Origin: Candidatus Dadabacteria bacterium
Lineage (GTDB): Bacteria; Desulfobacterota_D; UBA1144; Nemesobacterales; CSP1-2
DNA: 46,343 nt
Direction of reading: 5' to 3'
NCBI GenBank assembly: GCA_040289575.1
Contig: PSLL01000001.1
Span: forward strand, 120,096-166,438
Within the stretch, counting starts at the first letter, position 1; every line of letters starts with the position of its first letter. This document shows, in pieces, positions 4,077 to 28,219 of the stretch. The position numbers were made by a program, and so were the translations under genes. The notes beneath the pieces are model-generated. The model ran no database searches, was not told the DNA's origin, and saw nothing but the letters and a program-made list of their open reading frames with translations.

Positions 4077-4086
4077 TTAAAGTTCC

Positions 4087-4854: not shown

Positions 4855-4959
4855 TGCAAATAGACGGTCAGAGCCCAAATCAGTATAGAGTTCCATTTGA
4901 TTTAATCTCCTGAAACCGGGGACATATTTTTTCCAAATAATGCATTGGGGGTAGTAGAT

Positions 4960-6081: not shown

Positions 6082-6217
6082 GAGAGTGTATTACCACTAT
6101 TATTTTAGGATTTAATATTTGTTATCCTGTACAATAACTACGGTAAGTATCCTGACACTGGAATTGTCGATATTAGACTCCTAATAGGAAAAGGGCATTA
6201 AGCGCTGGATGTCTTAA

Positions 6218-7693: not shown

Positions 7694-7889
7694 GAGCTTC
7701 TATATACAAAGGGAGCAGGAAGGCTATCTCCTTATCGTAGCCCGAAAGGCTCTATGTACTTAGGGACCGGCTTAAGGTTTTGCTTGAGATAAGTAAATCA
7801 GTCAATTCTAGTAGTCTAAATTTGAAATTCGAGTGTGTATTAGTAATGTGTTTCAAAAAGACTGGCTAGGGAGGCTATTTAGATAAGAG

Positions 7890-9725
7890 ATGGCTTCATT
7901 ACGCTTTGCTATAATCTGTAATGGAATGACATTTCCGCGATGGCAAGCCGAATGTCTAAAGAAGATTCTTGAATTAGGTAATGTCCATATCGCCTTGCTT
8001 ATATTGAATTATGATAATGTTGTCTCAAGGAACCCGTTTATCGGGGTTTTTACCAGGTTAAGAAGACTAAACTTTAGAGAGATTCTATTTCAATTTTACA
8101 GTTCTTTAATTGCCCAGTCATCCCCATTTAGACCAGTAAATATGATGAACCTCCTTTCCCGTGTGCCTTCAATCCACTGTAAGGTGGTCAATGACATTGG
8201 GGATTCAGCGTATTTTAGCAATGAATACATAAGTAGAATCAGGCAATTTGACCTGGATTTCATTCTAAATTTTGGGTTTAATGTCCTTTGTGGAGATATA
8301 CTTAATTCGGCCCGCTATGGTGTCTGGTCATTTCATCACAGCGATGAGGTGAAATACGGAGGAATCCTTGATTGCTTCTGGGAAACTTACAGTGATGATC
8401 ATCATGTAATAGGGGTTGTGTTGAAGAGACTCACAGGATGCCTTGATGGAGGTGTTATTCTCAGGAAGGGCTTCTTTCCGAACATTTCATATTCTTTTAC
8501 TGCTAACTTGCGTATGATATTTCTCGAAACTTCATGCTGGCCCATGCAGGTATGTATTGATATACTTAATGGCAACATTGAGTACTTAAATGCTCCTCCT
8601 TCTCCGATGACGGTCATTACGTATCGTACTCCGAGTAACTCCCAGATGGTGTTGTTTTTACTTAAGCTACTGAGAGGCTTCTTTATAAAGAAATTTAATC
8701 GCTTTTTTTATCATGAGGAGTGGAATATTGGGATTATAAAAGAGCCGATAAGCGCGCTTCTAAAGACCGAGGTTAGACCTGCAATTCAGTGGCTTCCAAA
8801 ACCTGAAAAAGACCATTATCTAGCTGATCCATTTGCAATCGCCAAGGATCACAAATTTTACATATTTTGTGAAGATTTTGATTGTAACTCTGGTAAAGGT
8901 GTCATTTCAAATATAGAGCTTAGTAATAACTCGTATTCCATTGTGAAAAAGGAAATTGTACTTAGCACCTCTTTTCATTTGTCTTATCCTTTTCTTTTTG
9001 AATATAAGGGTGAGTTTTACTGTATCCCCGAAACATCAGACGCTTGCGAAATAGCAATTTATAGAGCTGAGCATTTTCCATCGCGCTGGATAAAAGTCTG
9101 TACACTCATAAAGGATTTTCCGGGTATTGACAGTACTATTTTCAAATACGGGAGTTACTGGTGGCTTTTCTGTACAAACGCGAAAGACGGTATGATGTAT
9201 AAACTGTTCATCTGGTATGCTCCGAATTTGACTGGACCATGGGAGCCTCATAAGTTAAATCCCGTCAAGATTGATGTGCGATCTGTGCGTCCGGCTGGTA
9301 CTCCATTTATGCACGATAGCTGTCTATATCGTCCTGCACAGGATTGTTCTGTAACGTATGGAGGACGAGTTGTATTAAATCGGATAGTCCGACTCACACC
9401 AGTGGCCTTTGAAGAAGAGCCTATAGTGAGTATTGAGCCAGACAGGAATAGTCATTATCGAGATGGGCTACATACAATATCAGCAGCTGGGGATGTTACA
9501 TTAGTAGATGGTAAGCGCCGAGTATTCTCATTTAGAGCTTTTATCTATACGGTACGATATATGCTTAAGGATTTTTTATGGGATCGGCGGGGGAATGGCT
9601 CTTTAAGATTTTTGAAATATGGGAGGTATACAGGATGGGCAAAGGTATTATTCGCCGTCTTATCAATCTGTGTGGCTATGACATCGTTTCACTCTATCCC
9701 CCTGACTTCTCTACAGAGGATATAG
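7890..9725 (+). CDS. Degenerate formyltransferase-like N-domain plus GH43-like five-blade beta-propeller (GINT1 N-terminal-like family)
   Basis: DFILNFGF..GDILNSARYGVWSFHH (formyltransferase-like); YLADPF, HLSYPF, YCIPET, RPAG, RPAQDC..YG, LHT (propeller motifs). Confidence 0.7.
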   Translation: MASLRFAIICNGMTFPRWQAECLKKILELGNVHIALLILNYDNVVSRNPFIGVFTRLRRLNFREILFQFYSSLIAQSSPFRPVNMMNLLSRVPSIHCKVVNDIGDSAYFSNEYISRIRQFDLDFILNFGFNVLCGDILNSARYGVWSFHHSDEVKYGGILDCFWETYSDDHHVIGVVLKRLTGCLDGGVILRKGFFPNISYSFTANLRMIFLETSCWPMQVCIDILNGNIEYLNAPPSPMTVITYRTPSNSQMVLFLLKLLRGFFIKKFNRFFYHEEWNIGIIKEPISALLKTEVRPAIQWLPKPEKDHYLADPFAIAKDHKFYIFCEDFDCNSGKGVISNIELSNNSYSIVKKEIVLSTSFHLSYPFLFEYKGEFYCIPETSDACEIAIYRAEHFPSRWIKVCTLIKDFPGIDSTIFKYGSYWWLFCTNAKDGMMYKLFIWYAPNLTGPWEPHKLNPVKIDVRSVRPAGTPFMHDSCLYRPAQDCSVTYGGRVVLNRIVRLTPVAFEEEPIVSIEPDRNSHYRDGLHTISAAGDVTLVDGKRRVFSFRAFIYTVRYMLKDFLWDRRGNGSLRFLKYGRYTGWAKVLFAVLSICVAMTSFHSIPLTSLQRI

Positions 9726-10375
9726 AAATCGTCAAACTCGTACGACCATATACAATGACTCGTCCTGAGCAGATTGTAGCTTTGGCCACTTCAGTAAAAT
9801 ATATTGTTGAAAATGGTATTAGAGGTGATCTAGTAGAATGTGGTGTATGGCGGGGGGGAAGCGCTATGGCGATGTTATACACACTGCTTAAGCTTGGGGA
9901 CACTGAACGGACGATTTATTTGTATGACACTTATAATGGAATGACACCACCTGGTGCAAAAGATGTTGCACACACCGGAGAATCCGCAGTTGATCTGCTT
10001 AATAAAGCAAAAAGAAAAACCGCCTCAAACATTTGGTGCTGGGCAACGATCGAGGATGTAACCAAGAATGTTTTATCTACCGGGTATCCAAAGGACAAAA
10101 TCGTATTGGTTGAGGGTGATGTAAGACAAACAATTCCCCAAACCGTTCCTACTGAGATTGCACTCCTAAGACTTGACACCGATTGGTATGAGTCCACAAG
10201 GCATGAGCTTATACACCTATTCCCGCGTTTGACCGATAAGGGCGTTCTAATAGTAGATGATTATGGACACTGGAGAGGGGTAAAGGATGCGGTTGATGAG
10301 TACTTTAGTAGTCATAAGTATAAACCACTTCTGCATCGAATCGACTACTCGGGAAGGTATTTAGTTAAGGTGTAA
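9635..10375 (+). CDS. TylF/MycF/NovP-family sugar O-methyltransferase
   Basis: GDLVECGVWRGGS, LRLDTDWYEST, IVDDYGHW. GGAGG SD at 9622-9626 supports ATG 9635 rather than 9578. Confidence 0.92.
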   Translation: MGKGIIRRLINLCGYDIVSLYPPDFSTEDIEIVKLVRPYTMTRPEQIVALATSVKYIVENGIRGDLVECGVWRGGSAMAMLYTLLKLGDTERTIYLYDTYNGMTPPGAKDVAHTGESAVDLLNKAKRKTASNIWCWATIEDVTKNVLSTGYPKDKIVLVEGDVRQTIPQTVPTEIALLRLDTDWYESTRHELIHLFPRLTDKGVLIVDDYGHWRGVKDAVDEYFSSHKYKPLLHRIDYSGRYLVKV

Positions 10376-13877: not shown

Positions 13878-15848
13878 GTGTTTAGAAATGAAGTCCGTAA
13901 TATAAAAGTTTTCCAATTAATATTCCTCTTTCTTGGAATCTTAACTATTGTTTTAGGACTTTATGCTACTGAATTCCGGCTTACACAATTTGTAACTAGC
14001 CACTTATCCACACATAAGGTGTTGTCTGAACGCACTATATCGCTTTTACATAGATTTAGAATTATGATTTTCCTATCGAGTGCTATATTAGTTTTATTGT
14101 CAATAATAGCGGGATATGTTGCAGTGTTAAAAGACTATATTATTAAGAAGATTGAATCGGGACATCTAGTTGAAAAGACTATTTCTTCCATAGGGAGGTT
14201 TTTAGATTTAATCTATGCCATAGGAACTAATGAAAAATTTCTTTTGTGCTTGTTGGTATTAATATTTATAATTTTCCTCCCTCTTGATGTTTTCTTGTCT
14301 CCGTGGGGTGGTTTTCACTCCGAAGGTATCAACCTACAGCTGCCAAAGAATCTTGCAAGGCATGGAATTTATGCGACTCTAACCACAAGAGGATTTGATG
14401 AGTTTACTTATAGAGTTTCGGCGGGACCGGGCATATTAATACCAATTGCCATTGTTTTTAAACTCTTTGGGATTAGTAACTACCATAGCCGAATGCTCTA
14501 TGCCGCATTTATCGTCTTAACAGCAATTGTGTTTTATTATGTGGCTCGTAACTTATATGGTAGGAAAGTATCACTCCTTGCATTGTTGTTATTTGTCTTT
14601 CAAAACGGAGCGTTTTCGGGGATAATGGGTGCGGATGCATATACGCCAGCCCTCTTCTACTTCTTAGTGGCCGCTCTATTTTGGTTTAAAGCAGTAGAGA
14701 CAAAAAAGAATATCTATCTTATTATAAGCGGTCTTTTTTGGGGCTTATCTTTTCAAACACAATGGCTCTTTCTATTTGCGATTTTTGCTGTGATTGTAAC
14801 ATGTATTATTCTTAGCTTATCTAAAAAGGGTTTAGGAAGCAAATATTATCTTATTCCATCCTGTATGGTCTTTTTAGTTACCATGGCTTGGTTCATTTTT
14901 CGTATATATAATGTTGGACTTAGACAAGAACTAATTCATTTGGAAGAATTTTGGAGAGAGCATGGACATAGGGCATTTGGAGCTAATACTGAGCAGGGGG
15001 TGATTTCTTCAATTTTGGCTTTTGCTCGTCCTATTGTCTCCCTTTCTCAGATCGACTTATGGGGCGAATTGCAGTTATTTTTGATTATCCCTGCCATTTT
15101 GTATGTAATCATTCTAATAGTCAGAAGCAGGATGTCAGATTACAGGAGTCTATTTTTTATAAGTTTTACTCTGATATGGTTTACCTGGTGGCTGTTATTT
15201 AATTATGACCTTCCCGAAACTCATCTCAGTATTGTTATCCTAATGTCTCAGCTTTTTATTGCCAAACTCCTATATGATATTTGGCGGTGTTCATCAGCAC
15301 ATAAGGACAGTTTTCTTGACTTGGTAAAGAATAAAAAGACGCAGGAAGCCTCTTTATCTTATGTACTGAAGATAATAATCATATGTATTGTCTTAGGAAA
15401 TACCGTGCTTCCTTTCGCTAGGGATATAGGGGACTTATATAATTATAATTTGACATTAACGAAACCGGAAAAAGAAATGATGAGATATATAAGAGAAAAT
15501 ACTGAAGCAGATGCCGTATTTTCCGGTTGGAATTGGAGTATGCCATGGTATGTAGACCTTGATGATGCTGGAGACCACATTATTAAGGATAGATCTACAT
15601 ATCCACCACAGCAGCGTGAATCTGTTCCGGAATACTTTATAGTCTCTCCTGAGTGGCCATTACTTAAAGTTACCGATAAATGGCCTTCTGTAGTTAATGA
15701 AAGCAGCAGTAGTATTAAACTGAATGAGGCACGTAAGAGGTTCTTAGAGGAAAATTGTACTTTAGTAAAGGTCTTTGGTGGCGATAAGCATAAGTGGCTT
15801 TTATATAAGGTCAATAACGATAAACTCGTCCAATCACATCAGAAGTAA
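13878..15848 (+). CDS. GT-C fold membrane glycosyltransferase (ArnT/PMT-like) #1
   Basis: Polytopic membrane protein; SEG acidic loop, then GP..L.P....FKLFG; SGLFWGLSFQT; soluble C-terminal domain. Confidence 0.7.
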   Translation: MFRNEVRNIKVFQLIFLFLGILTIVLGLYATEFRLTQFVTSHLSTHKVLSERTISLLHRFRIMIFLSSAILVLLSIIAGYVAVLKDYIIKKIESGHLVEKTISSIGRFLDLIYAIGTNEKFLLCLLVLIFIIFLPLDVFLSPWGGFHSEGINLQLPKNLARHGIYATLTTRGFDEFTYRVSAGPGILIPIAIVFKLFGISNYHSRMLYAAFIVLTAIVFYYVARNLYGRKVSLLALLLFVFQNGAFSGIMGADAYTPALFYFLVAALFWFKAVETKKNIYLIISGLFWGLSFQTQWLFLFAIFAVIVTCIILSLSKKGLGSKYYLIPSCMVFLVTMAWFIFRIYNVGLRQELIHLEEFWREHGHRAFGANTEQGVISSILAFARPIVSLSQIDLWGELQLFLIIPAILYVIILIVRSRMSDYRSLFFISFTLIWFTWWLLFNYDLPETHLSIVILMSQLFIAKLLYDIWRCSSAHKDSFLDLVKNKKTQEASLSYVLKIIIICIVLGNTVLPFARDIGDLYNYNLTLTKPEKEMMRYIRENTEADAVFSGWNWSMPWYVDLDDAGDHIIKDRSTYPPQQRESVPEYFIVSPEWPLLKVTDKWPSVVNESSSSIKLNEARKRFLEENCTLVKVFGGDKHKWLLYKVNNDKLVQSHQK

Positions 15849-15990: not shown

Positions 15991-16977
15991 ATGAAGAAGA
16001 GTAGTACCAGGCTATGGATAAGCATATTAGCTAGTGCATTGTTCATAGTATTGACACTATATAAGGTTGATTTCCAAAAAACCGGAGAGGCTCTCGAGAC
16101 AGCCAATTATATATATCTTCCATTGGGAGTGATGTTGAGTCTACTGACGAATATCATTCGTAGTTACCGCTGGAAATATGTCCTTAATCCAATTCAAAAA
16201 ATCAGTATTCTGAGTGTTTTCTCCGTGGTATCCATTGGATATATGGCGAATAACATCTTGCCAGCAAGGTTAGGAGAATTTGTAAGGGCTTATATAATAG
16301 GCAAAAAAGAGGGGATAAGTAAAAGTACAACCCTTGCTACAATTGTTGTTGAACGAATATTTGATGGTTTAACACTACTATTTTTTTTAACTCTTATCTC
16401 GTTGTTTTTCCCATTGCCCCTTTGGATAAAACGCGTTGGATTTGCCGCCACCGTGTTTTTCTTATCGTTATCGGTTTTTTTACTTATCTTAATGTTCAAA
16501 AAGACAATAGGAATACGATTAGTAGAACGAGGTGTGAGTTTATTCTCTTCTTATATAGCACAAAGGGCTAGTCGCCTTATGGATTCTTTTTTATCCGGAT
16601 TAGTCATAATTAACCATAAAAAAGACATTTTGATGGCTTTTCTCTTCTCAGTTATCGCCTGGTTGGCGGAGGCAACGACCTATTATGTCATTGGTTTGTC
16701 TTTCGGTATTGATTTGCCTCTTTACGTGCCTGTGTTAACAGTTGTAATAGTAAACCTGGGAATAATGATTCCTTCGGCTCCGGGATATGTTGGCACCTTT
16801 GAATTCTTCTGTATTAGTGTGCTTGCCATATTCTCTGTGGAAAAGAGCATTGCTTTGAGTTTCGCTATAGTGCTTCATGCGGTGTTATTTATCCCTATAA
16901 CCATTGTTGGAATGATCTATTTTTGGAAGGAGAATTTAAGTTTTGCGGAAATTGATACGGTAAAATTGTCCCACTGA
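15991..16977 (+). CDS. Lysylphosphatidylglycerol synthase TM-domain / UPF0104 flippase-like protein
   Basis: RSYRW, NNILPARLGEFVR, VERIFD, PSAPGYVGTFE. Confidence 0.88.
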   Translation: MKKSSTRLWISILASALFIVLTLYKVDFQKTGEALETANYIYLPLGVMLSLLTNIIRSYRWKYVLNPIQKISILSVFSVVSIGYMANNILPARLGEFVRAYIIGKKEGISKSTTLATIVVERIFDGLTLLFFLTLISLFFPLPLWIKRVGFAATVFFLSLSVFLLILMFKKTIGIRLVERGVSLFSSYIAQRASRLMDSFLSGLVIINHKKDILMAFLFSVIAWLAEATTYYVIGLSFGIDLPLYVPVLTVVIVNLGIMIPSAPGYVGTFEFFCISVLAIFSVEKSIALSFAIVLHAVLFIPITIVGMIYFWKENLSFAEIDTVKLSH

Positions 16978-17026: not shown

Positions 17027-19135
17027 ATGAAGGCAATAGTTATACTAGGTGGAGGATTAGCAGGGTTAAGTACCGCCTGGCATTTAGAAAAGGCGGGGTA
17101 TAAATACCATCTTTTCGAGAAGGAATCAAGGGTGGGTGGGCTCACGCGTTCTGAAATCATTGAGGGTTTTACATTTGATTTTACTGGCCACCTTTTGCAT
17201 TTTAAGGATCAATATGTAAAGGACTTGATTCTACAGTTGCTCGGGGAGAATATTAATTATGTTGAGAGGAGTTCTTGGATCTTCTCAAAGAATGTCTATA
17301 CGAGATACCCTTTCCAGACCAATACATTTGGGTTGCCTGAGGAGGTTGTAAAAGAATGTATTATTGGTTTTGTTGAGGCTAAATATGGGAAAAATGGTGC
17401 AGATTTAAATAAAACTGTCTCCAAAGATGCCAGGGAAGACAAGACATTTGAAGATTGGATATACGAAAACTTTGGTCGTGGAATTGCAAAGCACTTTATG
17501 ATTCCCTATAACCAAAAGTTGTGGACTGTTCATCCAAGGGATCTCACATGCGACTGGATGGGCAGGTTTGTTCCCCAAACATCTTTGGAGCAAATACTCG
17601 ATGGTGCCCTTTCAGATCAATCGAAAAAAATAGGATACAACGCTTACTTCTATTATCCTCTTCAAGGTGGTATAGAGTCATTACCTAGGGCTTTTGCCTC
17701 TTCTCTTTCTAATATACATGTAGACAGTGAGGGCTGTGAAATAGACCTAAAGGAGAGAATGATTACTTTTAAGAACAGTGAGAAGATACACTACCATAAG
17801 CTTATATCATCTATCCCTCTACCTAGACTGGTAAGTATGATAAAGCCATTGCCAAGTCAGATCAGAGATTCAGTGCGGAATCTCCAGTATAACTCTGTTT
17901 TCGATATAAATTTGGGGATTAATAGAAATGTTAGTGATAAGCACTGGATCTATTTCCCTGAGCCGGAGTACGTATTCTATAGAGTTGGATTTCCAAGCAA
18001 CTTTTCTCCGTTTATGGCGCCTGAAGGAACTAGCTCTCTTTATATAGAGATTTCTTATTCTGATAATAAACCATTGGATAAGAAAATGGCTATTGAGAGG
18101 GCAAAAGAGGATCTTATAAAGGCCCACATACTTAGAGATTCAGATAGGATTTTAGTGGAAAAGTGCCTGGATATAAAATGCGCTTATGTGATTTATGATA
18201 GAAATCACAAGAGCACTGTAGCTCAAATAAAAGATTTCCTGAGAGAGAACGACATATACACCATTGGAAGGTACGGTTCTTGGGAGTATTCCGGTATGGA
18301 GGATGCCATGCTACAGGGAAGGGATTTAGCTAATAAAATAATCCATGAGGATAAGGAGGGCTATATTCTTAAACAACCTGAGCAAGCTCCCGTCGTTTCT
18401 ATAGTTATTCCTATCTATAAAGAAGAGAAGATACTTGAAGGCGCTGTTACAGAAATTATACAAGAGGCTGACAAACTCCAAATAGATTATGAATTATTAC
18501 TCTGTGAAAATGGCAGTCCCGATCGTACTGGAGAGATTGCAAACAGACTCTCTGTTACCTATCCTCAAGTACGGGTTGTCCGTTATCCTGAGCCGAACTA
18601 CGGAAAGGCATTGGAACTAGGAATTCTCAAGTCTATTGGCCAGTATATAGTCTGCTTTGAGATAGATTTTTGGGATGGGGCATTTATTGAAATCGCTAGG
18701 GTCTTGCTTAGGAAATACGATGCCGTCATTGGTTCAAAGAGGGCTAAAGGGGCTAGGGATAAACGACCGCTCATTCGTAGGATAATCACCCTTGGTTTTA
18801 ACCTGTTTTTAAGACTCTTTTTCGGTTTTCAGGGAACTGACACCCATGGTATAAAGGCATTTAGACGTGACAAGGCTATTGATATTGTTAAAGAGTGTAA
18901 AACCGGTAAGGATATTTTTGCTACCGAACTCATTTTGAGAATGGAGCGTGCAGGATTGTATATGTGCGAGATCCCACTCGAGATAGAGGAGAAAAGACCT
19001 CCTTCGATAAATCTCCTTAAGCGTGTACCAGGTACAATTAAAAACCTTATAAAACTTTGGAGAGTAACCAGAAATTTAAAACGTCCAGAAATTAAAAACC
19101 TGGAGCCTGTTCCAAAGATATCTAATAAAGCCTAG
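17027..19135 (+). CDS. Fusion of an FAD-dependent UDP-galactopyranose-mutase-like/HemY-fold flavoprotein (aa ~1-440) and a polyprenol-phosphate GT2 (aa ~456-702)
   Basis: GGGLAG FAD motif, FDFTGH, YPFQ, PYNQKLW, YP..GG, WIYFPE..FYR, GRYGSWEY; then SIVIPIYKEE, ENGSPD, NYGKAL, IGSK, DTHGIKAFRR in one uninterrupted frame. Confidence 0.8.
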   Translation: MKAIVILGGGLAGLSTAWHLEKAGYKYHLFEKESRVGGLTRSEIIEGFTFDFTGHLLHFKDQYVKDLILQLLGENINYVERSSWIFSKNVYTRYPFQTNTFGLPEEVVKECIIGFVEAKYGKNGADLNKTVSKDAREDKTFEDWIYENFGRGIAKHFMIPYNQKLWTVHPRDLTCDWMGRFVPQTSLEQILDGALSDQSKKIGYNAYFYYPLQGGIESLPRAFASSLSNIHVDSEGCEIDLKERMITFKNSEKIHYHKLISSIPLPRLVSMIKPLPSQIRDSVRNLQYNSVFDINLGINRNVSDKHWIYFPEPEYVFYRVGFPSNFSPFMAPEGTSSLYIEISYSDNKPLDKKMAIERAKEDLIKAHILRDSDRILVEKCLDIKCAYVIYDRNHKSTVAQIKDFLRENDIYTIGRYGSWEYSGMEDAMLQGRDLANKIIHEDKEGYILKQPEQAPVVSIVIPIYKEEKILEGAVTEIIQEADKLQIDYELLLCENGSPDRTGEIANRLSVTYPQVRVVRYPEPNYGKALELGILKSIGQYIVCFEIDFWDGAFIEIARVLLRKYDAVIGSKRAKGARDKRPLIRRIITLGFNLFLRLFFGFQGTDTHGIKAFRRDKAIDIVKECKTGKDIFATELILRMERAGLYMCEIPLEIEEKRPPSINLLKRVPGTIKNLIKLWRVTRNLKRPEIKNLEPVPKISNKA

Positions 19136-19191
19136 TGAGGGGAGATAATTTTACCTTAGGCAAAGTCAGAGAATAGGTGAAAGGAGTAGTA

Positions 19192-20010
19192 ATGATAAAC
19201 GCTATGACTGTCGACCTTGAGGATTGGTACCATAGCATAGACTCTATACCATTCCATGATTGGGATATTTATGAGTCTCGAATAGAGGCTGATACTTATA
19301 AGATTCTTGAGATTTTTAATCAATTTGAGTTAAGAGCAACATTTTTTGTACTGGGATATGTGGCTGAAAGGCATCCGGCATTGGTAAAAGAGATTCACTC
19401 CATAGGGCACGAGATAGCAACACACGGGTATTCTCATAGCCTTATCTATCGTCAAACCCCTAAGGAATTTAGGGAGGATCTACGTAGATCCATTAGAGCA
19501 ATAGAAGATATAACTCAGCGGAGTGTCTTAGGGTACAGAGCTCCATACTGGACAATTACCACGGAGTCTTACTGGGCTTTGGATATTCTTCAAGAGGAGG
19601 GTATAAAATATGATTCGAGTATCTATCCGGTAAAGACTTATCTCTATGGTATTCCCGGTGCTCCTGTATATCCATATGTTGTTAAAGAAAGTGACGGTAA
19701 CAAATTAATTGAGTTTCCTCCCTCGACGGTTACTATTTGCGGGATAAGGGTACCAATAGCTGGTGGCTTTTATATGAGGGCACTTCCCTCTTGGCTTATA
19801 CACTGGGGAATTAAAAGAATTAATAAAGAGGGTCAACCCGCTATAGTATATATACACCCGCCTGAGTTTGACCCACTAAAGCCCGTTGTAAAATTACCGT
19901 TTAGGGAGAGAATCTTGCATTATTACAACCTGGATGTGATGGAGAGGAAGCTCAGGGCATTACTCTCAGAGTTTAGATTTGACTCTGTAAGGGAATTGCT
20001 AAGATTATAG
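19192..20010 (+). CDS. Polysaccharide deacetylase (CE4) with DUF3473-type C-terminus, like the PEP-CTERM/XrtA-locus subfamily
   Basis: TVDLEDWY, ATFFVLG, HEIATHGYSH, GYRAP, YDSS, GGFYMR, YIHPPEFD. AAGGAG SD supports ATG 19192. Confidence 0.9.
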   Translation: MINAMTVDLEDWYHSIDSIPFHDWDIYESRIEADTYKILEIFNQFELRATFFVLGYVAERHPALVKEIHSIGHEIATHGYSHSLIYRQTPKEFREDLRRSIRAIEDITQRSVLGYRAPYWTITTESYWALDILQEEGIKYDSSIYPVKTYLYGIPGAPVYPYVVKESDGNKLIEFPPSTVTICGIRVPIAGGFYMRALPSWLIHWGIKRINKEGQPAIVYIHPPEFDPLKPVVKLPFRERILHYYNLDVMERKLRALLSEFRFDSVRELLRL

Positions 20011-20012
20011 AG

Positions 20013-21759
20013 ATGAATAATTTATTTAGGATGAATTTAATTAGTAACAACAAGAACTCAATATATATTTGTCTGTCATTTATTGGAGCTATATTAGTTA
20101 TTGCAGGTTTGATTTTTAATCCTCTATTCGTAGCCAGATACTTAAGCTCACGCGGTGTTCTAGCGAAATCAACTGTTGTTGATATCTATAAGTTAGAATC
20201 ACTTATTATTATCCTTGGGTTGATTATTTGCCTTTTTTCTTTAGATAGAATTATCAATAGTACTCCAAATAAGATCGATAGGTTTTTGTTTATTCACAGA
20301 ATTGTCCTTTCCGGTCTTATTGTTGCCCTTCTCTTACTTATACTTCCATTTCTTCTTTATGATGTCATAAGGATTAGCTATATGGCTCCTATTGACTACA
20401 GCGAGGGATGGAATACAGTTCACACAACAGGATTACTCTATGGTAAGCCACTTTATGTACCGCTCAGGGGTTTCCCACTTACACCAGTCAATTATCCTCC
20501 GTTAGGATTCATTATTATTAGTGCACTCAGCTATTTTACGAGTTTATCGGTTCTCCAAACCGGAAGGATAGTTTCACTTATTTCATTATTGCTCATAGGT
20601 TATTTGATCTATGGAATAATTACCAATTTTACGTCAAAAAAATTAGGTGCCCTATTGGGTGCACTCATGTGGATTGCATTTATAGCACGATTGGCCAGAG
20701 ACTATGTTAGCATGTGCAACCCACAAATGTTGGGGCATGTTTTTTCTCTAGGAGCCCTTTATTTCTATTCCAAATGGGCTGATTGGCTTACCATACGAAA
20801 AACATGTGTACTGGCATTATTGTGCTGCTTTGCTCTATTTGTTAAATTCCTTTTAATTGCTGTTCCGGTTACACTTGCAATATCACTTTTCTTTAACAAC
20901 GGAAGATATTTTTGGGTTTTTACTTTAGCGGGAATAGTTATTTTCCCTCTTATGATTTTTGGAAGCTGGATTTATGGGAGAGAGTACTTTTTCTCCAACG
21001 TCATAGGCTTTGAGTTTGTTCGTCTTGCTTGGAACATGAAAATGGTAACAAATATTAGAGAACTATTTGCAACTCACTTTGCTTATGTTCTTTTCTTTCC
21101 CTTCATTACTCTTCTTTTTAACTGCCAAAGAAAATGGATTTCTGTTCCAGTATACTTCTCTATTTCTTTTCTATTGGGTTCTTATTTTATTCGTGGTCAT
21201 GGTGTTACTGTAAATGCCTGGTTTGATTTTTTTTATATCTGCTGCCATTGGTTTTGGACTATTGGCTGCAGAGTTTATAAAACCAGAAATTTTTTGGAAG
21301 CGTATTTTGGTTTGTGGAATTCTAGCCTCTTGTCTCTTGCCATTTTTTATGAATTTAAGAGGTGACCTAAGTAGAGTTTTAAACTACAATGAACTTAAAC
21401 AGCAGGAGAAAGACTATCGAACAAGTGTTGAACTTTTACGATCCATTGATGGAGCGGCTCTATTTGAGGATCCACTTTTGGGATTCGATGCGGGAAAAGA
21501 GTTTTTATTTGATCCTTTTATTGGTACTGATCTAATTTGGTCCAGACGCATACCTGAGAGAGTTTTAACAGATGCTATACGTGAACAAAAATTCGGTGCT
21601 ATTGTTTTTGAAGTTAGCCTCGATAAAGAGGAGCTATGGACACATAACATAATTGAGGCTATTAAGGACAATTATGAGTTACTAAATCTGCGGTATCACA
21701 GTCCTTATTTTTTTTATATACCGCGCAAAAGAAACACACATTTCATGGTAGGTCAGTGA
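20013..21759 (+). pseudogene. GT-C fold membrane glycosyltransferase #2, split by a frameshift in a T8 run
   Basis: DYSEGWN and NYPP motifs. ORFs 20013-21365 and 21214-21759 join into one frame (...AWFDFF|ISAAIGFGLL...) if one T is removed from the run at 21227-21234. Confidence 0.75.
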
Positions 21760-21910: not shown

Positions 21911-23728
21911 ATGGTTATGATAATACTCGGTATTTCTTGTTTTTATCATGATAGTGCTGCTGCTTTGGTAAGAGACGGGGAGATTATTGCGGCTGCCCAA
22001 GAGGAAAGATTTACACGCAAGAAGCATGACTTTGATTTTCCAAGGCATGCCATTGCCTACTGCTTACAAGAAGGAAAGATCTCCATAAGAGATGTGGACT
22101 ATGTTGCTTTCTACGATAAGCCTTTTATCAAGTTTGAACGAATTATCGAGACCTATCTTGCTTATGCTCCGAGGGGTTTAAAATCATTTCTTATAGCAGT
22201 TCCTCTATGGCTAAAGGAGAAGCTCTGGATGTCGGAGTTAATTAGGAAGGAACTCGGTGGATATAAAGGAGAAATTATTTTTCCAGAGCACCATGAATCT
22301 CATGCCGCTTCGGCGTTTTACCCTTCTCCTTTTGAGGAGGCTGCTATATTGACGATTGATGGGGTAGGGGAGTGGACGACGACCAGTTTCGGTATAGGGA
22401 AAGGCAATTCAATAGAAATCCAATGGGAACTCCGTTTCCCGCATTCATTGGGGATGCTCTATTCGGCATTTACCTATTACACTGGTTTCAAGGTAAATTC
22501 CGGTGAGTACAAGGTTATGGGGCTAGCTCCTTATGGGGAACCGAAGTATGTGGATTTGATTTATGAATACTTGATGGATCTGAAAGAGGATGGCTCCTTC
22601 AAGCTCAATATGGAGTATTTCAACTATTGTGCAGGACTCACAAATGAAAAGTTTCATAGGCTCTTTGGCGGTCCGCCGAGACAGCCAGAGACCAAGCTCA
22701 CTCAAAAAGAGATGGATTTAGCGGCATCTATTCAGGCAGTTACAGATGAGGTGATGTTGCGTATGGCCCGTCATGTAAAAAGTGTAACTGGTCAGAGGTA
22801 CTTATGCCTAGCAGGTGGTGTGGCGCTAAACTGTGTGGCAAATGGCAAGATTTTACGCGCCGATATTTTTGATGATCTATGGATTCAACCCGCGGCGGGG
22901 GATGCAGGGGGATCGCTAGGGGCAGCACTGATAGTCTGGTATCAGTACCTAGGTAATAAGCGAAGGGTTGGTAAAAGAGATATGCAAAAGGGCTCTTATC
23001 TCGGACCGGCATTTTCGGACGACTATATCGAAAACTTCTTAAGACAGAAAAAAATTCCTTATGAGAAGTGTGAAAATGGGCAACTTACCCAACTGGTTGC
23101 TGAGTTATTAACCCAGGAGAAGGTCATCGGTTGGTTTTCCGGACGCATGGAGTTTGGTCCTCGCGCGTTGGGAGCGCGTAGTATCATTGGGGATGCCCGT
23201 TCACCCAATATACAATCCACGATGAATTTAAAGATAAAGTTTCGCGAGTCGTTTCGTCCGTTTGCTCCAACTGTACTGCGTGAAAAGGCCTCTGAATGGT
23301 TTGAAATGGACCGGGAGAGTCCTTATATGCTTCTCGTAGCCGATGTTAAGAAGGAAAAACAACGTGAAATGACAGATAGAGAAAAACAATTGTGGGGTAT
23401 TGATAAACTAAATGTGGTGCGAAGTGAGATTCCAGCAGTTACACACGTTGATTATTCTGCACGTATTCAAACGATTGACAGAGAAGATCACCCACTGTAC
23501 TACGAGTTAGTAGAGAGGTTTTATGAAAAGACAGGATGCCCTATTATTGTTAATACATCCTTTAATGTGCGCGGAGAGCCTATTGTGTGTACCCCGGAGG
23601 ATGCTTATAGGTGCTTTATGCGAACGAATATGGATTATCTTGTTCTTGGCAAATTCATTTTAGATAAGACCCAGCAACCCAGATTTGAGGATAACAGCGA
23701 CTGGAGAAAGGAGTATGAACTGGATTGA
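21911..23728 (+). CDS. O-carbamoyltransferase, NodU/CmcH family (SxtI-like subgroup)
   Basis: YHDSAA, EERFTRKKH, EHHESHAASAF, DGVGE, GEYKVMGLAPYG, GGVALN, EFGPRALGARS, RESFRPFAP, NTSFNVRGEP. Confidence 0.95.
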   Translation: MVMIILGISCFYHDSAAALVRDGEIIAAAQEERFTRKKHDFDFPRHAIAYCLQEGKISIRDVDYVAFYDKPFIKFERIIETYLAYAPRGLKSFLIAVPLWLKEKLWMSELIRKELGGYKGEIIFPEHHESHAASAFYPSPFEEAAILTIDGVGEWTTTSFGIGKGNSIEIQWELRFPHSLGMLYSAFTYYTGFKVNSGEYKVMGLAPYGEPKYVDLIYEYLMDLKEDGSFKLNMEYFNYCAGLTNEKFHRLFGGPPRQPETKLTQKEMDLAASIQAVTDEVMLRMARHVKSVTGQRYLCLAGGVALNCVANGKILRADIFDDLWIQPAAGDAGGSLGAALIVWYQYLGNKRRVGKRDMQKGSYLGPAFSDDYIENFLRQKKIPYEKCENGQLTQLVAELLTQEKVIGWFSGRMEFGPRALGARSIIGDARSPNIQSTMNLKIKFRESFRPFAPTVLREKASEWFEMDRESPYMLLVADVKKEKQREMTDREKQLWGIDKLNVVRSEIPAVTHVDYSARIQTIDREDHPLYYELVERFYEKTGCPIIVNTSFNVRGEPIVCTPEDAYRCFMRTNMDYLVLGKFILDKTQQPRFEDNSDWRKEYELD

Positions 23729-23794
23729 AGGATTTATTAATGAACGGAATTGTTATAAATAAATCCCCGGGGCTTAATTAAAGGAGTAGTAAAA

Positions 23795-24217
23795 ATGATA
23801 TCAACAATAAAAAAGGAACTCAATTCACTAAAGACTGATAAGAAGACACTTAGAAATTTCGGACTTCTCTTCTTTGTAGTTTTGGGTGCCATGGCGGGTC
23901 TCTCTTATTGGAAGGGAAGTTCACATTGGCCGTGGTTTATAGGGGGAAGCGGGTTGTTTCTCATTTTGGGCTTATTCTTTCCGTCTCTTCTTAAATCTTT
24001 CTACAAGGTGTGGATGGTATTTGCCTTTCTACTAGGCTGGGTAATGACCAGAGTTATATTAACTCTGACCTTCTTCTTAGTCTTTACCCCTGTGGGTTTT
24101 ATGTTGAGAGTGTTGGGTAAGGATCTATTAAATCAGAGGATTGGCAAGAATGCCAGCACATACTGGCGCAGGCGTGAACCTATATGGGATAAGTCGAGAT
24201 ACTTAAAGCAATACTGA
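23795..24217 (+). CDS. SxtJ-family membrane protein
   Basis: LRNFG, W...A..LGWV.TR.IL...FF..FTP.G...R..GKDLL, TYW..R; directly follows the carbamoyltransferase; AAGGAG SD. Confidence 0.85.
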   Translation: MISTIKKELNSLKTDKKTLRNFGLLFFVVLGAMAGLSYWKGSSHWPWFIGGSGLFLILGLFFPSLLKSFYKVWMVFAFLLGWVMTRVILTLTFFLVFTPVGFMLRVLGKDLLNQRIGKNASTYWRRREPIWDKSRYLKQY

Positions 24218-24390: not shown

Positions 24391-24666
24391 AAATGTATGA
24401 CGACCGACAAGAATTGCAAGATCCACTATAATTGAGAATAATACCAATTCCATCGGATACTTCTGGTGTGCTCAAAAAGGTGGTTATTGTCAGTGGATTT
24501 TGTGTCTCTTGTATTGACCTGAGTCTTAGCTAAGTCCATACTGTGCTTTCCAGGGATATTTCCAGAGGCTTTATATGGGCGTTTTTAGATCTTAGACAAG
24601 ATCCTACTATATTCTAAAAAACGGGTTTTGGTGGCTGATGATATATGGTGGAATGGAGGGACAGCA

Positions 24667-25929
24667 GTGAGGGAATGGACAATAAGACTAGGGCTTATAG
24701 TTTTTGGATTTTTCATAGTCGTGGTCTCTATGGTGGCTTTAGAGTTCTATTTAAGCAGATTCACCCCTCATATCTTGACTCTCTATAAGCCAGATGAATA
24801 TATAGGCTGGAAGGGGATACCTAATTTCAAGGGGGAGTTCAAGAAAGGTAGAGTAAGCTCATATGTTAGGATGAACTCTCATGGGTTTAGAGATAAAGAA
24901 CGTAGTTATGAGAAAGGGAAAGATACATTCAGGATTGTTGTTCTGGGTGATTCTTTTACTGAGGGTATGCAAGTTCCACTAGAGCAGACATTTCCATATA
25001 TACTTGAGGAGAGGTTAAATTCGGGGGGAAGTAGTGAGAGGTTTGAGGTAATAAATCTTGGGGTATCAGGGTTTGGTACTGCTCAGGAATACCTAGCACT
25101 TAAGTATTATGGATTAAGATATCACCCCGATCTTGTCATATTAGAATTCTTTATAGGTAATGATGTTGTAAACAATTCCTTGATCCTAGAAACTGAGAAG
25201 GAGAGGCCATTTTTTGTATTAAGTGGCGGTAAACTAGAAGAGCTGCCATTTAAAATCAGGACTAGCAATCTCGCTAAAGGAGAAGGGGAGACCAAGGAGG
25301 ATGTTGCTGAGCAATTCCGAATTAAATATTTGATACTTAGATATTCAACGAGGTTTTTTCCCAATATCTCCTATTCATTGGAGGATAGAATAAAACAAAC
25401 ACCATGGTTAGCAAATCTATTGTGGAAAATGGGTATTGTTAACTCTAAACCACAATTGCCTGATAAATCTCAAAGAGATGAAATCCCTTTAGATAAGTAT
25501 ATATATGCTGAGAGTTATTCACGGGAATGGGAGGATGCTTGGGAGATTACAAAGGGATTAATATTGAAGTTAGCAAATGAATTAGAGGCACAGAAGATAG
25601 GGTTTCTAGTGGTTGTTATTCCAAATGAGTATGAATTTAGGTCTGATATATGGGATAAGATTCTAGGTGCATATCCTCAGATGAGGTCAATGAGGTTAGA
25701 TTTAAGGAAGCCAGAGGGTATTTTATCGAGATTTTTTGAATCAAATGGGATAGAGTATCTTCTACTGAGGTCGGAATTTGAGAGATATACCAAGGAAACT
25801 GGTAAGGATTTACATTTCCACTTTGCATATGAGAATCACTGGAATGCGGATGGGCATGCCCTTGCTGCTGATCTCATCTATAAGAAACTGAAAGAAGATA
25901 AGTTAGTGTCAATAAAAGATGTACAATAG
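24667..25929 (+). CDS. Membrane-anchored SGNH/GDSL protein (AlgX/AlgJ-like), copy 1
   Basis: N-terminal TM; NSHGFRD, LGDSFTEG, NLGVSGFGT, GND, ENHWN..GH. GTG 24667 follows a GGAGG SD. Confidence 0.85.
   Translation: MREWTIRLGLIVFGFFIVVVSMVALEFYLSRFTPHILTLYKPDEYIGWKGIPNFKGEFKKGRVSSYVRMNSHGFRDKERSYEKGKDTFRIVVLGDSFTEGMQVPLEQTFPYILEERLNSGGSSERFEVINLGVSGFGTAQEYLALKYYGLRYHPDLVILEFFIGNDVVNNSLILETEKERPFFVLSGGKLEELPFKIRTSNLAKGEGETKEDVAEQFRIKYLILRYSTRFFPNISYSLEDRIKQTPWLANLLWKMGIVNSKPQLPDKSQRDEIPLDKYIYAESYSREWEDAWEITKGLILKLANELEAQKIGFLVVVIPNEYEFRSDIWDKILGAYPQMRSMRLDLRKPEGILSRFFESNGIEYLLLRSEFERYTKETGKDLHFHFAYENHWNADGHALAADLIYKKLKEDKLVSIKDVQ
24670..25895 (+). repeat. 1226-bp direct repeat, copy A
   Basis: Matches 26957-28182 at offset 2287. 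One difference seen (G25492 vs T27779). Confidence 0.95.
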
Positions 25930-26941: not shown

Positions 26942-28219
26942 ATGCGGATGATATTAAGGGAATGGACAATAAGACTAGGGCTTATAGTTTTTGGATTTTT
27001 CATAGTCGTGGTCTCTATGGTGGCTTTAGAGTTCTATTTAAGCAGATTCACCCCTCATATCTTGACTCTCTATAAGCCAGATGAATATATAGGCTGGAAG
27101 GGGATACCTAATTTCAAGGGGGAGTTCAAGAAAGGTAGAGTAAGCTCATATGTTAGGATGAACTCTCATGGGTTTAGAGATAAAGAACGTAGTTATGAGA
27201 AAGGGAAAGATACATTCAGGATTGTTGTTCTGGGTGATTCTTTTACTGAGGGTATGCAAGTTCCACTAGAGCAGACATTTCCATATATACTTGAGGAGAG
27301 GTTAAATTCGGGGGGAAGTAGTGAGAGGTTTGAGGTAATAAATCTTGGGGTATCAGGGTTTGGTACTGCTCAGGAATACCTAGCACTTAAGTATTATGGA
27401 TTAAGATATCACCCCGATCTTGTCATATTAGAATTCTTTATAGGTAATGATGTTGTAAACAATTCCTTGATCCTAGAAACTGAGAAGGAGAGGCCATTTT
27501 TTGTATTAAGTGGCGGTAAACTAGAAGAGCTGCCATTTAAAATCAGGACTAGCAATCTCGCTAAAGGAGAAGGGGAGACCAAGGAGGATGTTGCTGAGCA
27601 ATTCCGAATTAAATATTTGATACTTAGATATTCAACGAGGTTTTTTCCCAATATCTCCTATTCATTGGAGGATAGAATAAAACAAACACCATGGTTAGCA
27701 AATCTATTGTGGAAAATGGGTATTGTTAACTCTAAACCACAATTGCCTGATAAATCTCAAAGAGATGAAATCCCTTTATATAAGTATATATATGCTGAGA
27801 GTTATTCACGGGAATGGGAGGATGCTTGGGAGATTACAAAGGGATTAATATTGAAGTTAGCAAATGAATTAGAGGCACAGAAGATAGGGTTTCTAGTGGT
27901 TGTTATTCCAAATGAGTATGAATTTAGGTCTGATATATGGGATAAGATTCTAGGTGCATATCCTCAGATGAGGTCAATGAGGTTAGATTTAAGGAAGCCA
28001 GAGGGTATTTTATCGAGATTTTTTGAATCAAATGGGATAGAGTATCTTCTACTGAGGTCGGAATTTGAGAGATATACCAAGGAAACTGGTAAGGATTTAC
28101 ATTTCCACTTTGCATATGAGAATCACTGGAATGCGGATGGGCATGCCCTTGCTGCTGATCTCATCTATAAGAAACTGAAAGATAAAGGTATAGTGTCTCA
28201 TAAAGGGAGGCATGTATAG
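26942..28219 (+). CDS. Membrane-anchored SGNH/GDSL protein, copy 2
   Basis: Same protein as copy 1 except the termini and one D/Y change; own AAGGAG SD. Confidence 0.85.
   Translation: MRMILREWTIRLGLIVFGFFIVVVSMVALEFYLSRFTPHILTLYKPDEYIGWKGIPNFKGEFKKGRVSSYVRMNSHGFRDKERSYEKGKDTFRIVVLGDSFTEGMQVPLEQTFPYILEERLNSGGSSERFEVINLGVSGFGTAQEYLALKYYGLRYHPDLVILEFFIGNDVVNNSLILETEKERPFFVLSGGKLEELPFKIRTSNLAKGEGETKEDVAEQFRIKYLILRYSTRFFPNISYSLEDRIKQTPWLANLLWKMGIVNSKPQLPDKSQRDEIPLYKYIYAESYSREWEDAWEITKGLILKLANELEAQKIGFLVVVIPNEYEFRSDIWDKILGAYPQMRSMRLDLRKPEGILSRFFESNGIEYLLLRSEFERYTKETGKDLHFHFAYENHWNADGHALAADLIYKKLKDKGIVSHKGRHV
26957..28182 (+). repeat. 1226-bp direct repeat, copy B
   Basis: Matches 24670-25895. 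Confidence 0.95.

Follow-up and report, generated by a model that had tools for sequence, protein, structure and literature searches.

What does a protein do that joins, in a single polypeptide, a flavoprotein resembling a sugar mutase to a glycosyltransferase of the kind that loads sugars onto polyprenyl phosphate? The question is raised by a gene on the plus strand of a 46,343-nucleotide stretch of DNA from a Candidatus Dadabacteria bacterium (contig PSLL01000001.1), which was analysed as a whole and is called the window throughout this text; coordinates are window positions, and residue numbers are those of the 702-aa fusion protein (P0001). An earlier note on this DNA had proposed that the protein contracts the ring of a nucleotide-linked pyranose and passes the furanose to undecaprenyl phosphate, which would make it a one-protein route to a lipid-linked furanose donor. 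We find that this proposal stands as far as both domain types and the context that couples them are concerned, and that plain UDP-galactopyranose (UDP-Galp) is improbable as its sugar. The gene and its parts are laid out as follows.

17027..19135 (+): fusion protein P0001, made up of a flavoprotein domain resembling UDP-galactopyranose mutase (UGM), a short linker and a family 2 glycosyltransferase (GT2) domain resembling polyprenyl-phosphate glycosyltransferases.
17027..18346 (+): N-domain, aa 1-440, with the Rossmann fold for flavin adenine dinucleotide (FAD) at G8-G-G-L-A-G13; assigned from phmmer, Foldseek and the residue map.
18347..18394 (+): interdomain linker, about aa 441-456, with a low predicted local distance difference test score (pLDDT) at 445-451.
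18395..19132 (+): GT2 domain of GT-A fold, aa 457-702, without a membrane helix; assigned from Pfam, the model and Foldseek.

The joined frame is genuine and an assembly artefact is excluded, because the fusion recurs in other protein clusters and loci and is bridged by contigs of several sequencing runs. As the earlier note had stated, the open reading frame (ORF) listing and the translation gave one 702-aa frame with an ATG start and no internal stops, in which Pfam recognised Amino_oxidase at residues 11-439 (9.2e-21) and Glycos_transf_2 at 458-584 (7.6e-14); a Shine-Dalgarno-like stretch, GGGGGAGA, lies about 8 nt upstream. A domain-architecture search, which the note had proposed, found both Pfam domains in 23 more protein clusters of 693-728 aa with 61-87% identity to the fusion, counted in the best 120 of 3,174 homologue matches, the other 96 being flavoproteins of 425-488 aa. 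The length of the linker is constant in 21 fused homologues, and the loci L001 and L002 encode the same fused frame. Furthermore, Logan contigs of four sequencing runs (X1, X2, X3 and X5) cross the domain junction without the stop that the note had considered there; X1-X3 are soil runs from two studies, X2 being possibly the window's own source, and X5, from a hot spring, carries 114 substitutions together with the sole indels within the ORF, a compensating +1/-1 pair at 17429/17433. The motifs on which the note had relied were all found in the translation in the order given, namely F50-D-F-T-G-H55, Y94-P-F-Q97, T140FEDWI...FG.GIA..FM.PYN.K.W166, C175.WMG179, N205..F.YP..GG215, W307.YFPE...FYR...SNFSP328 and G414RYGSW.Y421.

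The N-domain proved to be closer to eukaryote-type UGMs than to HemY, as those motifs had suggested. In phmmer searches against the PDB its best matches were TcUGM (4dsg, 7.3e-51, residues 3-437) and AfUGM (3ute, 1.6e-45), the next family being the L-amino-acid oxidases at about 1e-9 (nearest oxidase 9.4e-10), while Escherichia coli Glf (1i8t) reached 4.1e-6 over residues 4-122 only. Similar results were obtained with the predicted fold. The AlphaFold2 model of the whole protein had a pLDDT of 87.9 and a predicted template modelling score (pTM) of 0.64 (46-sequence alignment), and Foldseek of the model placed TcUGM 4dsg at 1e-42 (TM 0.88 on target, 29% identity) and AfUGM at about 1e-41 to 1e-38, with the protoporphyrinogen oxidases (PPOs) no better than 3e-24 (2ive 3e-24, others weaker), below all UGM chains and at 16% identity. 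A HemY/PPO identity was thus rejected, since the curated PPO models gave the fusion protein 32-36 bits versus cut-offs of 98-560 and the UGMs were far ahead in the sequence and fold searches; the grouping with HemY that the note had allowed for was seen neither by sequence nor by predicted fold.

The likeness extends to the active site. The ligand contacts of AfUGM given in Table 3 of PMC3624792 were transferred via the HMMER alignment, and 15 of 17 contact residues were found to be kept in the N-domain, including the following.

Uracil/ribose pocket: Y104, F158, F106, Q107, N163 and W167 of AfUGM are here Y94, F157, F96, Q97, N162 and W166.
Diphosphate contacts: Y317, R327, Y419 and Y453 of AfUGM are here Y309, R319, Y387 and Y421.
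Galp contact: N207 of AfUGM is here N205.
Flavin contacts: H63, G62 and R447 of AfUGM are here H55, G54 and R415.

Across 13 family members these contacts do not vary, and each of them is present in at least 20 of the 21 fused homologues. The tabulated uridine contacts are matched six out of six (13/13 family members), and the diphosphate cage is kept at four of five residues, R182 being the exception. The His loop, T53-G54-H55 (nt 17183-17191), indeed reads TGH rather than GGH, the position of AfUGM G61 being Thr, and G54 and H55 each occur in 13/13 family members and 20/21 fused homologues. Eukaryote-type UGMs (TcUGM 4dsg and AfUGM 3ute) and the N-domain thus share the fold, 25-29% identity, the His loop with its N5-contacting Gly, the uridine pocket including Gln107, the 200s-flap N207 and four of the five residues of the Arg/Tyr diphosphate cage; Gln107 is absent from bacterial UGMs according to PMC3624792. 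Unlike the eukaryote-type enzymes, which have 480-510 aa, the present domain is prokaryotic, comprises about 440 aa and forms a fusion with a GT2. Judged by its residues, the N-domain has the catalytic apparatus of a UGM-type mutase with a sugar pocket that appears to differ from the one for UDP-Galp.

The C-terminal domain is, as the earlier note had classed it, a DPM1-like GT2 in fold and in residues. When the domain was modelled alone (pLDDT 90.2, 38-row alignment), Foldseek ranks 1-19 were filled by Salmonella ArnC, Synechocystis GtrB and Pyrococcus dolichyl-phosphate mannose synthase (DPMS), at 6.6e-13 to 6.2e-11. Profile alignment sets E-I-D-F-W-D against D89-A-D91-L-Q93-H94 of the Pyrococcus enzyme (PfDPMS) and D94-A-D-L-Q-D99 of GtrB, and G-S-K571, G575, R584 and T588 against G-S-R117, G122, R131 and S135 of PfDPMS. 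The triplet E545-I546-D547 (nt 18659-18667), which had been read as EID in the place of DxD, therefore does occupy the DxD position; its E, I and D are invariant in 21/21 fused homologues, and D547 aligns with the metal ligand D91. According to PMC5526996, D91 and Q93 of PfDPMS hold the metal and D89 contacts the mannosyl group and not the metal, while R117, R131 and S135 bind the phosphate of dolichyl phosphate (Dol-P); the counterparts of this triad, K571, R584 and T588, are invariant in 21/21 fused homologues, and the substitutions are conservative. The domain has no transmembrane (TM) helix, and helices are predicted at aa 582-599 and 664-681. This lack of membrane helices need be no obstacle, since PfDPMS minus its TM domain showed activity as wild type and was 80% membrane-bound, as reported in that paper. 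The GT-A fold, predicted interface helices, an Asp aligned with the metal ligand and the acceptor-phosphate residues are shared with ArnC, GtrB and DPMS/DPM1. Stand-alone relatives of this GT2, of 230-300 aa, gave 452 matches (47-76% identity among those listed), which carry only the label 'glycosyltransferase family 2'. One of them, P0122 (283 aa, 76% identity), starts with the linker motif of the fused proteins, DKEGYVLKKPD, possibly because its gene was called too short or because it derives from a fusion that split only recently.

Is the pairing of the two domains peculiar to the fusion? Gene arrangement supports a functional coupling in two independent ways, by split adjacent pairs and by genome-wide co-occurrence in Myxococcota. 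Adjacency was judged by tblastn of the window proteins on fetched loci. Among 80 genome loci, split pairs in L014, L026, L055 and L071 consist of the flavoprotein, 48-165 nt, and then the GT2 (46-66% identity), and such pairs occur in Planctomycetota, Myxococcota and metagenomes. Seen from the GT2 side, over 80 metagenome loci and the genome loci (at least 35% identity, a high-scoring segment pair of at least 195 aa and no stop; L087, L091, L096 and L118 left out for stops, 43 rows kept including the window), the flavoprotein was fused or directly upstream in 18 of 33 assessable rows and absent from the other 15, each with at least 1.4 kb of upstream sequence; ten rows were unassessable. The GT2 tree unites the window, L001, L002, L026 and L081 in a subclade with the motif CFEIDF[WY]D, into which L082, with the similar motif CYEIDFWD, is not resolved; every member of the subclade, and L082, has the flavoprotein fused or directly upstream. 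In the flavoprotein tree (93 domains, two rows with stops left out) the three fused rows form one clade (support 99), and 15 of the 18 rows adjacent to a GT2 constitute a separate clade with a Shimodaira-Hasegawa-like approximate likelihood ratio test (SH-aLRT) value of 82, which together with L082 and three stand-alone rows makes up a 19-row group (91).

In Myxococcota the GT2 family was detected in 118 of 201 sampled genomes. Forty of these GT2 loci, chosen solely for sufficient flanking sequence, had the flavoprotein directly upstream on the same strand (19), divergent (1), or not within about 3.5 kb (19), one being too short to tell. When the 20 genomes without a detected adjacent copy were searched (among them G035, with short upstream sequence), 19 encoded the flavoprotein elsewhere at E<=1.6e-74; by comparison, 20 genomes without the GT2 family gave a flavoprotein match at E<=1e-40 in eight cases and at the level of E<=1.6e-74 in one. 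This contrast dispels the concern that the GT2 may frequently act in the absence of the flavoprotein. A deacetylase of carbohydrate esterase family 4 (CE4) follows the GT2 directly in 23 of the 40 loci, and does so in numerous metagenome loci too. Near some Myxococcota GT2 hits, open frames of about 650-750 aa were considered as fusions and rejected, as the fetched loci hold separate genes, and no Myxococcota-type fused protein was among the best 150 sequence representatives. It may be noted that in the high-GC loci L091, L099, L105 and L179 the flavoprotein-GT2 cassette stands immediately after polA, and in the first three of these between polA and a HrpB-type helicase gene. At L191:1705-6054 (Myxococcota) the flavoprotein and GT2 are followed by CE4 and a PlsC-type acyltransferase (PF01553), with a divergent GntR regulator adjoining, a row that hints at a deacetylate-then-acylate glycolipid route.

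The fusion itself is rare, and the flavoprotein family is large. Searched with the whole 702-aa protein, 1.84 billion representatives at 50% identity gave 26,672 matches at E<=1e-3 and 1,741 at E<=1e-30, the best listed matches being nearly all flavoprotein-only; in the best 150, only P0022 (706 aa) spans both domains, and the fragment P0243 (466 aa) matches query residues 237-699, which leaves one full-length 50%-identity cluster and one fragment. The search for the fusion in 30 genomes related to the host (2 of the same genus, 12 of the same family and 16 of the same order) was negative, the best N-domain matches there being 33-35% identical, and the nearest fused genes belong to metagenome-assembled genomes (MAGs) labelled Bacteroidetes, Ignavibacteriaceae and Thermodesulfobacteriota. 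On these two grounds the cassette is patchy and probably moves with polysaccharide loci. A triple fusion including the flippase-like protein encoded next to the gene was not seen among the best 120 homologues of 386-1229 aa. As for the flavoprotein, contigs from one genome per species encoded a relative in 582 of 600 candidate stretches, the best 80 loci coming from Omnitrophota, Elusimicrobiota, Acidobacteriota, Planctomycetota, Myxococcota, Clostridia, a Bathyarchaeia MAG and others, and its members are labelled 'protoporphyrinogen oxidase', 'FAD-dependent oxidoreductase' or, rarely, 'UDP-galactopyranose mutase'. We propose it as a prokaryotic family sister-like to the eukaryotic UGMs.

Stand-alone flavoproteins mostly adjoin GT4 glycosyltransferase genes. 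The host genome (95% complete), in which no Glf-type PF03275 gene was found, encodes a paralogue 47% identical to the N-domain, flanked by genes for a PF00953 phosphoglycosyl transferase and a GT4, and in P0387 (724 aa) the substrate-binding domain of an RmlD-type NDP-sugar reductase lies N-terminal to the UGM-like domain. A nucleotide sugar as the substrate of the family fits these neighbours and this fusion. Among the side observations, P0376 (1551 aa) combines DUF707, an extra N-terminal flavin-binding domain and a UGM-like domain at 866-1308. The host also encodes an Amino_oxidase protein (G000:C20:101172-102500; L163:979-2859, minus strand) that is 27-29% identical to the N-domain and adjoins a PBP1C-like gene; proteins of this type, of 620-650 aa with a C-terminal extension of about 190 aa without a Pfam match, are present in many host relatives.

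The genes around the fusion belong to a long same-strand polysaccharide locus, which makes up the window and includes GT4, GT2, Wzx-like, Wzy_C, asparagine-synthase-like, UDP-sugar dehydrogenase, methyltransferase and carbamoyltransferase genes. Those nearest to it are the following.

13878..15848 (+): GT-C membrane glycosyltransferase (PMT_2, 35.7 bits versus a cut-off of 26.1).
15991..16977 (+): flippase-like membrane protein (LPG_synthase_TM, 9.6e-59; TIGR00374, 116.8 bits versus 43.2).
19177..20010 (+): CE4 polysaccharide deacetylase with DUF3473 (TIGR03006, 309.6 bits versus 276.2).
20013..21365 (+): polytopic membrane protein of 450 aa without a family match, starting 2 nt past the deacetylase stop and possibly another GT-C-like protein.

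The genes of this row are separated by 2-142 nt, without any terminator-like site; a putative lipid-sugar synthase, a candidate flippase and a GT-C as candidate user of the lipid-linked sugar are thus encoded as one same-strand row. Parts of the row are found elsewhere. The GT-C is syntenic in L001 (54% identity) and L082 (37% identity), and the flippase-like gene in L001, L002 and L014, the orders being GT-C, flippase-like, fusion, second GT-C and deacetylase in L001; flippase-like, fusion and deacetylase in L002; flippase-like, flavoprotein and GT2 in L014; and GT-C, flavoprotein, GT2 and deacetylase in L082.

Elsewhere in the window, 9 kb downstream, stands a second lipid-sugar set, a PMT_2 GT-C (28306-29808) followed by a GT2 with a GtrA/DPMS TM domain (29893-31092), and further GT-C-like genes are at 40415-42151 and possibly 20013-21365, so that the locus seems to hold several extracytoplasmic glycosylation branches. 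At 21911-24217, O-carbamoylation of a sugar is suggested by a carbamoyltransferase gene (Carbam_trans_N/C, 605 aa) with a small SxtJ-family protein encoded after it. At 7890-9725 is a 611-aa protein matching GINT1_N (glucosamine inositolphosphorylceramide transferase 1 N-terminal domain, 7.7e-43), whose ORF, taken from the first start codon, overlaps that of a TylF-like methyltransferase (9578-10375) by 148 nt. Two similar GDSL-like proteins with the same partial Pfam match (24628-25929, 433 aa; 26942-28219, 425 aa) flank a 294-aa ORF without a family match.

How might these parts work together? We give an even chance to a route that leads from an NDP-pyranose to an NDP-furanose and on to a polyprenyl-phosphate carrier, for glycosylation outside the cytoplasm. 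The support for it comes entirely from sequence, predicted fold and gene neighbourhood. Observed are the identities of the domains, the conservation of their residues, and the synteny and co-occurrence of the genes; from these we infer which reactions take place and in what order, which carrier lipid and which sugar are involved, and what the neighbouring genes do. The N-domain would act as a reduced-FAD-dependent pyranose/furanose mutase of nucleotide sugars, binding a UDP-sugar and contracting its ring through a flavin-N5 adduct as in UGM. The C-domain, as a peripheral-membrane GT2 of the DPM1/GtrB/ArnC kind, would then transfer the furanose onto polyprenyl phosphate; undecaprenyl phosphate is the presumed acceptor, from the fold, the residues and the neighbouring GT-C and flippase-like genes. 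By analogy with ArnC/ArnD, the CE4 neighbour could de-N-acetylate the lipid-linked furanose, the flippase-like neighbour could flip it across the membrane, and the GT-C neighbour could use it to decorate the surface glycan of this locus. Since the equilibrium of such mutases favours the pyranose, a tethered transferase that consumes the furanose would pull the flux forward; for CDP-fucose a pyranose:furanose ratio of 92:8 at equilibrium is given in PMC12369002.

On sequence and predicted structure, the best-supported reading of the module is a lipid-sugar pathway of the three-component or Arn type that receives its sugar from a fused mutase. The Arn pathway (ArnC, ArnD, ArnE/F and ArnT) likewise has a GT2 that loads a modified sugar onto undecaprenyl phosphate, a CE4 member in ArnD, a flippase and a GT-C, and its later steps draw an unfavourable earlier equilibrium forward, as is proposed here; unlike ArnD, the CE4 protein of the window scores as an XrtA-system polysaccharide deacetylase (TIGR03006). 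The three-component periplasmic systems, such as those for undecaprenyl-phosphate (undP)-pentofuranoses in Citrobacter youngae and for decaprenylphosphoryl-arabinose (DPA) in mycobacteria, resemble it in having a cytoplasmic lipid-linked monosaccharide, a flippase and a GT-C (PMC11127046). Lipid-linked furanose donors therefore exist, namely decaprenylphosphoryl-ribose (DPR), DPA and undP-Ribf/Xylf/Araf; in that paper these are pentoses, derived from phosphoribosyl pyrophosphate (PRPP) by UbiA-like synthases and epimerised on the lipid, and they are contrasted with GtrB-type systems using UDP-hexoses. In the present case, by contrast, the furanose is proposed to come from a nucleotide sugar by way of a flavin mutase and a GtrB-like GT2, and the flippase candidate is an LPG_synthase_TM protein and not MATE, SMR or GtrA. 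A published mutase-GT2 fusion or lipid-linked hexofuranose was not found in the full-text literature searched, most subscription journals and supplements lying outside it, which agrees with the earlier note, whose author knew of no characterised example of the fusion.

Several observations weigh against this proposal and are gathered here. For the flavoprotein, R182 of AfUGM, the flap Arg that contacts both diphosphate and Galp in the table of PMC3624792, aligns with F181; R180 stands one residue before it, at a position that is Arg or Lys in 11 of 13 family members and not basic in two. AfUGM Asn457 is the invariant Met424 and Gln458 is Glu, and among the tabulated Galp contacts R182, N207 and N457 only N207 is kept. 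The UGM model TIGR00031 gave 37.3 bits versus a cut-off of 303.75, and PF03275 (GLF) was not among the Pfam matches of the fusion protein at E<=0.01. Because N205 is the sole Galp contact kept and Asn457 has become Met, we do not file the domain as a UDP-Galp mutase proper, and the latter change, with a flap Arg that is shifted and not family-wide, makes plain UDP-Galp improbable; of the substrate Arg, Trp and Tyr residues that the earlier note had pointed to, those of the uridine pocket and Y309, R319, Y387 and Y421 are in place and the flap Arg is not. Counting Gln458 as well, the sugar probably differs from that of eukaryote-type UGMs. Our best guess is a galacto-configured or N-acetylated one, an N-acetylated or non-Gal sugar being plausible, as a guess, because the flap Arg is displaced, Asn457 is replaced by Met and CE4 is so often the partner. 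Some precedent for such substrates, by analogy, is offered by the relatives of Glf, as Campylobacter jejuni UNGM reportedly acts on UDP-GalNAc. The Glf-type mutases (E. coli Glf 1i8t, C. jejuni UNGM and HS41.17) are distant in sequence from the N-domain, which lacks their PF03275 match; alike would be the presumed reduced-FAD, redox-neutral ring contraction with an equilibrium favouring the pyranose, and HS41.17 is a CDP-fucose/6-deoxy-altrose mutase (PMC12369002).

The GT2 domain also departs from its models, having no membrane helices. Glu replaces the first Asp of DxD (D89), an aromatic residue, W549, replaces the metal ligand Gln93, and ENGS replaces DDxS, all three changes being invariant across the GT2 family. 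The lead of ArnC, GtrB and DPMS over other GT-A enzymes in the structural search is about 2-3 orders of magnitude, a modest margin since a chondroitin polymerase follows as the next match at 1.8e-10. ArnC orthology was rejected, the ArnC equivalog model giving about 30-33 bits on the fusion protein versus a cut-off of 529. As regards coupling, GT2s with and without an adjacent flavoprotein are interleaved in the C[DE]EIDLCD clade under the same motif, and the co-occurrence counts overstate independence because genomes of the same phylum are kin. The closest stand-alone flavoproteins (L003, L004, L006, L007 and L013; 57-61% identity) include solitary genes, and G033, the genome of L007, which alone was searched among theirs, gave no GT2 of this family. 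The Myxococcota module is surrounded by housekeeping genes (polA, hrpB, urate oxidase, MscS and UDG), and no GT-C or flippase gene was seen near it in the loci inspected. Lastly, no measured activity was found for any member of either family in the literature searched. As an observation apart, the L004 and L007 flavoproteins (57-59% identity) lie, at about 4000-9300, divergent from a row of YdjM, VTT/DedA-type, LolA-like/DUF4292 and MacB/FtsX permease genes; the window also has a YdjM gene, at 33729-34316.

Other explanations can be set beside this one. The GT2 may have another acceptor than polyprenyl phosphate, such as a phospholipid or glycolipid precursor or a soluble phosphorylated molecule, to which it would pass the product of an NDP-sugar mutase; the flippase-like neighbour, whose family includes the flippase domain of MprF, would then move a glycolipid as MprF does with modified phospholipid. 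The missing membrane helix, the housekeeping surroundings of the Myxococcota module with no GT-C or flippase nearby, the CE4 and PlsC-type genes of L191 and the weak matches of glucosyl-3-phosphoglycerate synthases to the GT2 sequence all fit this idea, which we nevertheless consider unlikely, as polyprenyl-phosphate glycosyltransferases take all 19 top places in the structural search, the residues corresponding to the phosphate triad are conserved, a GT-C, of a family that uses polyprenyl-phosphate sugars, is syntenic here and in L001 and L082, and TM-less PfDPMS is active on Dol-P (PMC5526996). We are similarly disinclined to see in the N-domain a flavin enzyme that carries out a reaction other than ring contraction on a nucleotide- or lipid-linked sugar, for example an oxidation (compare DprE1 and the ArnA dehydrogenase), next to an ordinary GT2. 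The fold is common to amine oxidases and PPO, two of the three tabulated AfUGM Galp contacts are lost and the flap Arg varies, and the score is far under the curated UGM cut-off; against this, UGMs are ahead of every oxidase by at least 17 orders of magnitude in fold and sequence, and features of the non-redox UGMs described in PMC3624792 are invariant here, namely the His loop with the Gly that contacts N5, the residues of the uridine pocket and four of those in the Arg/Tyr diphosphate cage. Met424 itself speaks for a mutase if, as we suppose, it is equivalent to the Met that contacts the isoalloxazine in bacterial UGMs (Ec M349, Kp M352 and Dr M373 in Table 3 of that paper).

The order of the steps could also be reversed, the GT2 making a polyprenyl-phosphate pyranose from a common UDP-sugar and the flavoprotein then contracting the lipid-linked ring, with polyprenyl phosphate leaving and returning. 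UGM chemistry requires merely an anomeric phosphate as leaving group, the shared motif of GT2s with and without an adjacent flavoprotein is easier to understand if the donor is always a pyranose, and in the lipid-linked pentofuranoses known so far the sugar is remodelled once it is on the lipid (PMC11127046). Such an order is very unlikely in view of the six tabulated uridine-binding residues of AfUGM, all of them invariant here, and of the Leloir GT4 neighbours and the RmlD-like fusion, which indicate a nucleotide-sugar substrate. Finally, we would be most surprised if the fusion had no mechanistic meaning, two enzymes of separate branches of the locus having been joined by loss of a stop codon: the same gene order recurs in adjacent genes of several phyla and the two families co-occur genome-wide in Myxococcota, and 21 fused homologues, down to 61% identity, preserve the length of the linker together with the key residues of the two domains. 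What could be said for it is that the fusion is limited to one full-length cluster and one fragment in the best 150 representatives, that it was not found in the 30 relatives of the host, and that the interdomain interface is not confidently modelled (pTM 0.64).

Beyond the route from NDP-pyranose through NDP-furanose to the polyprenyl carrier, a wider claim can be framed, which we regard as doubtful. A prokaryotic sister family of the UGMs would contract a UDP-(N-acetyl)hexose, the TM-less GT2 would trap the furanose, and CE4 would often deacetylate it, yielding a polyprenyl-phosphate-aminofuranose for GT-C enzymes; such a new, non-pentose route, represented by the fusion gene and its widespread split form, would supply a fourth kind of donor beside the PRPP-derived undP-pentofuranoses, in most of the sampled Myxococcota and several candidate phyla.

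In the literature found, the lipid-linked furanose donors described so far all start from PRPP, and hexofuranoses are thought to enter glycans only from cytoplasmic nucleotide sugars. If the proposal is true, a mutase tethered to a GtrB-like enzyme would provide a route by which furanoses, possibly amino-furanoses, are added outside the cytoplasm, and it would be a clean natural case of a producer-consumer fusion that pulls an unfavourable equilibrium (about 8% furanose). The analysis also identifies the closest prokaryotic relatives of the eukaryotic UGMs, enzymes that are studied as drug targets, and proposes a testable function for two large families that are so far labelled only as oxidoreductase/PPO and glycosyltransferase family 2.

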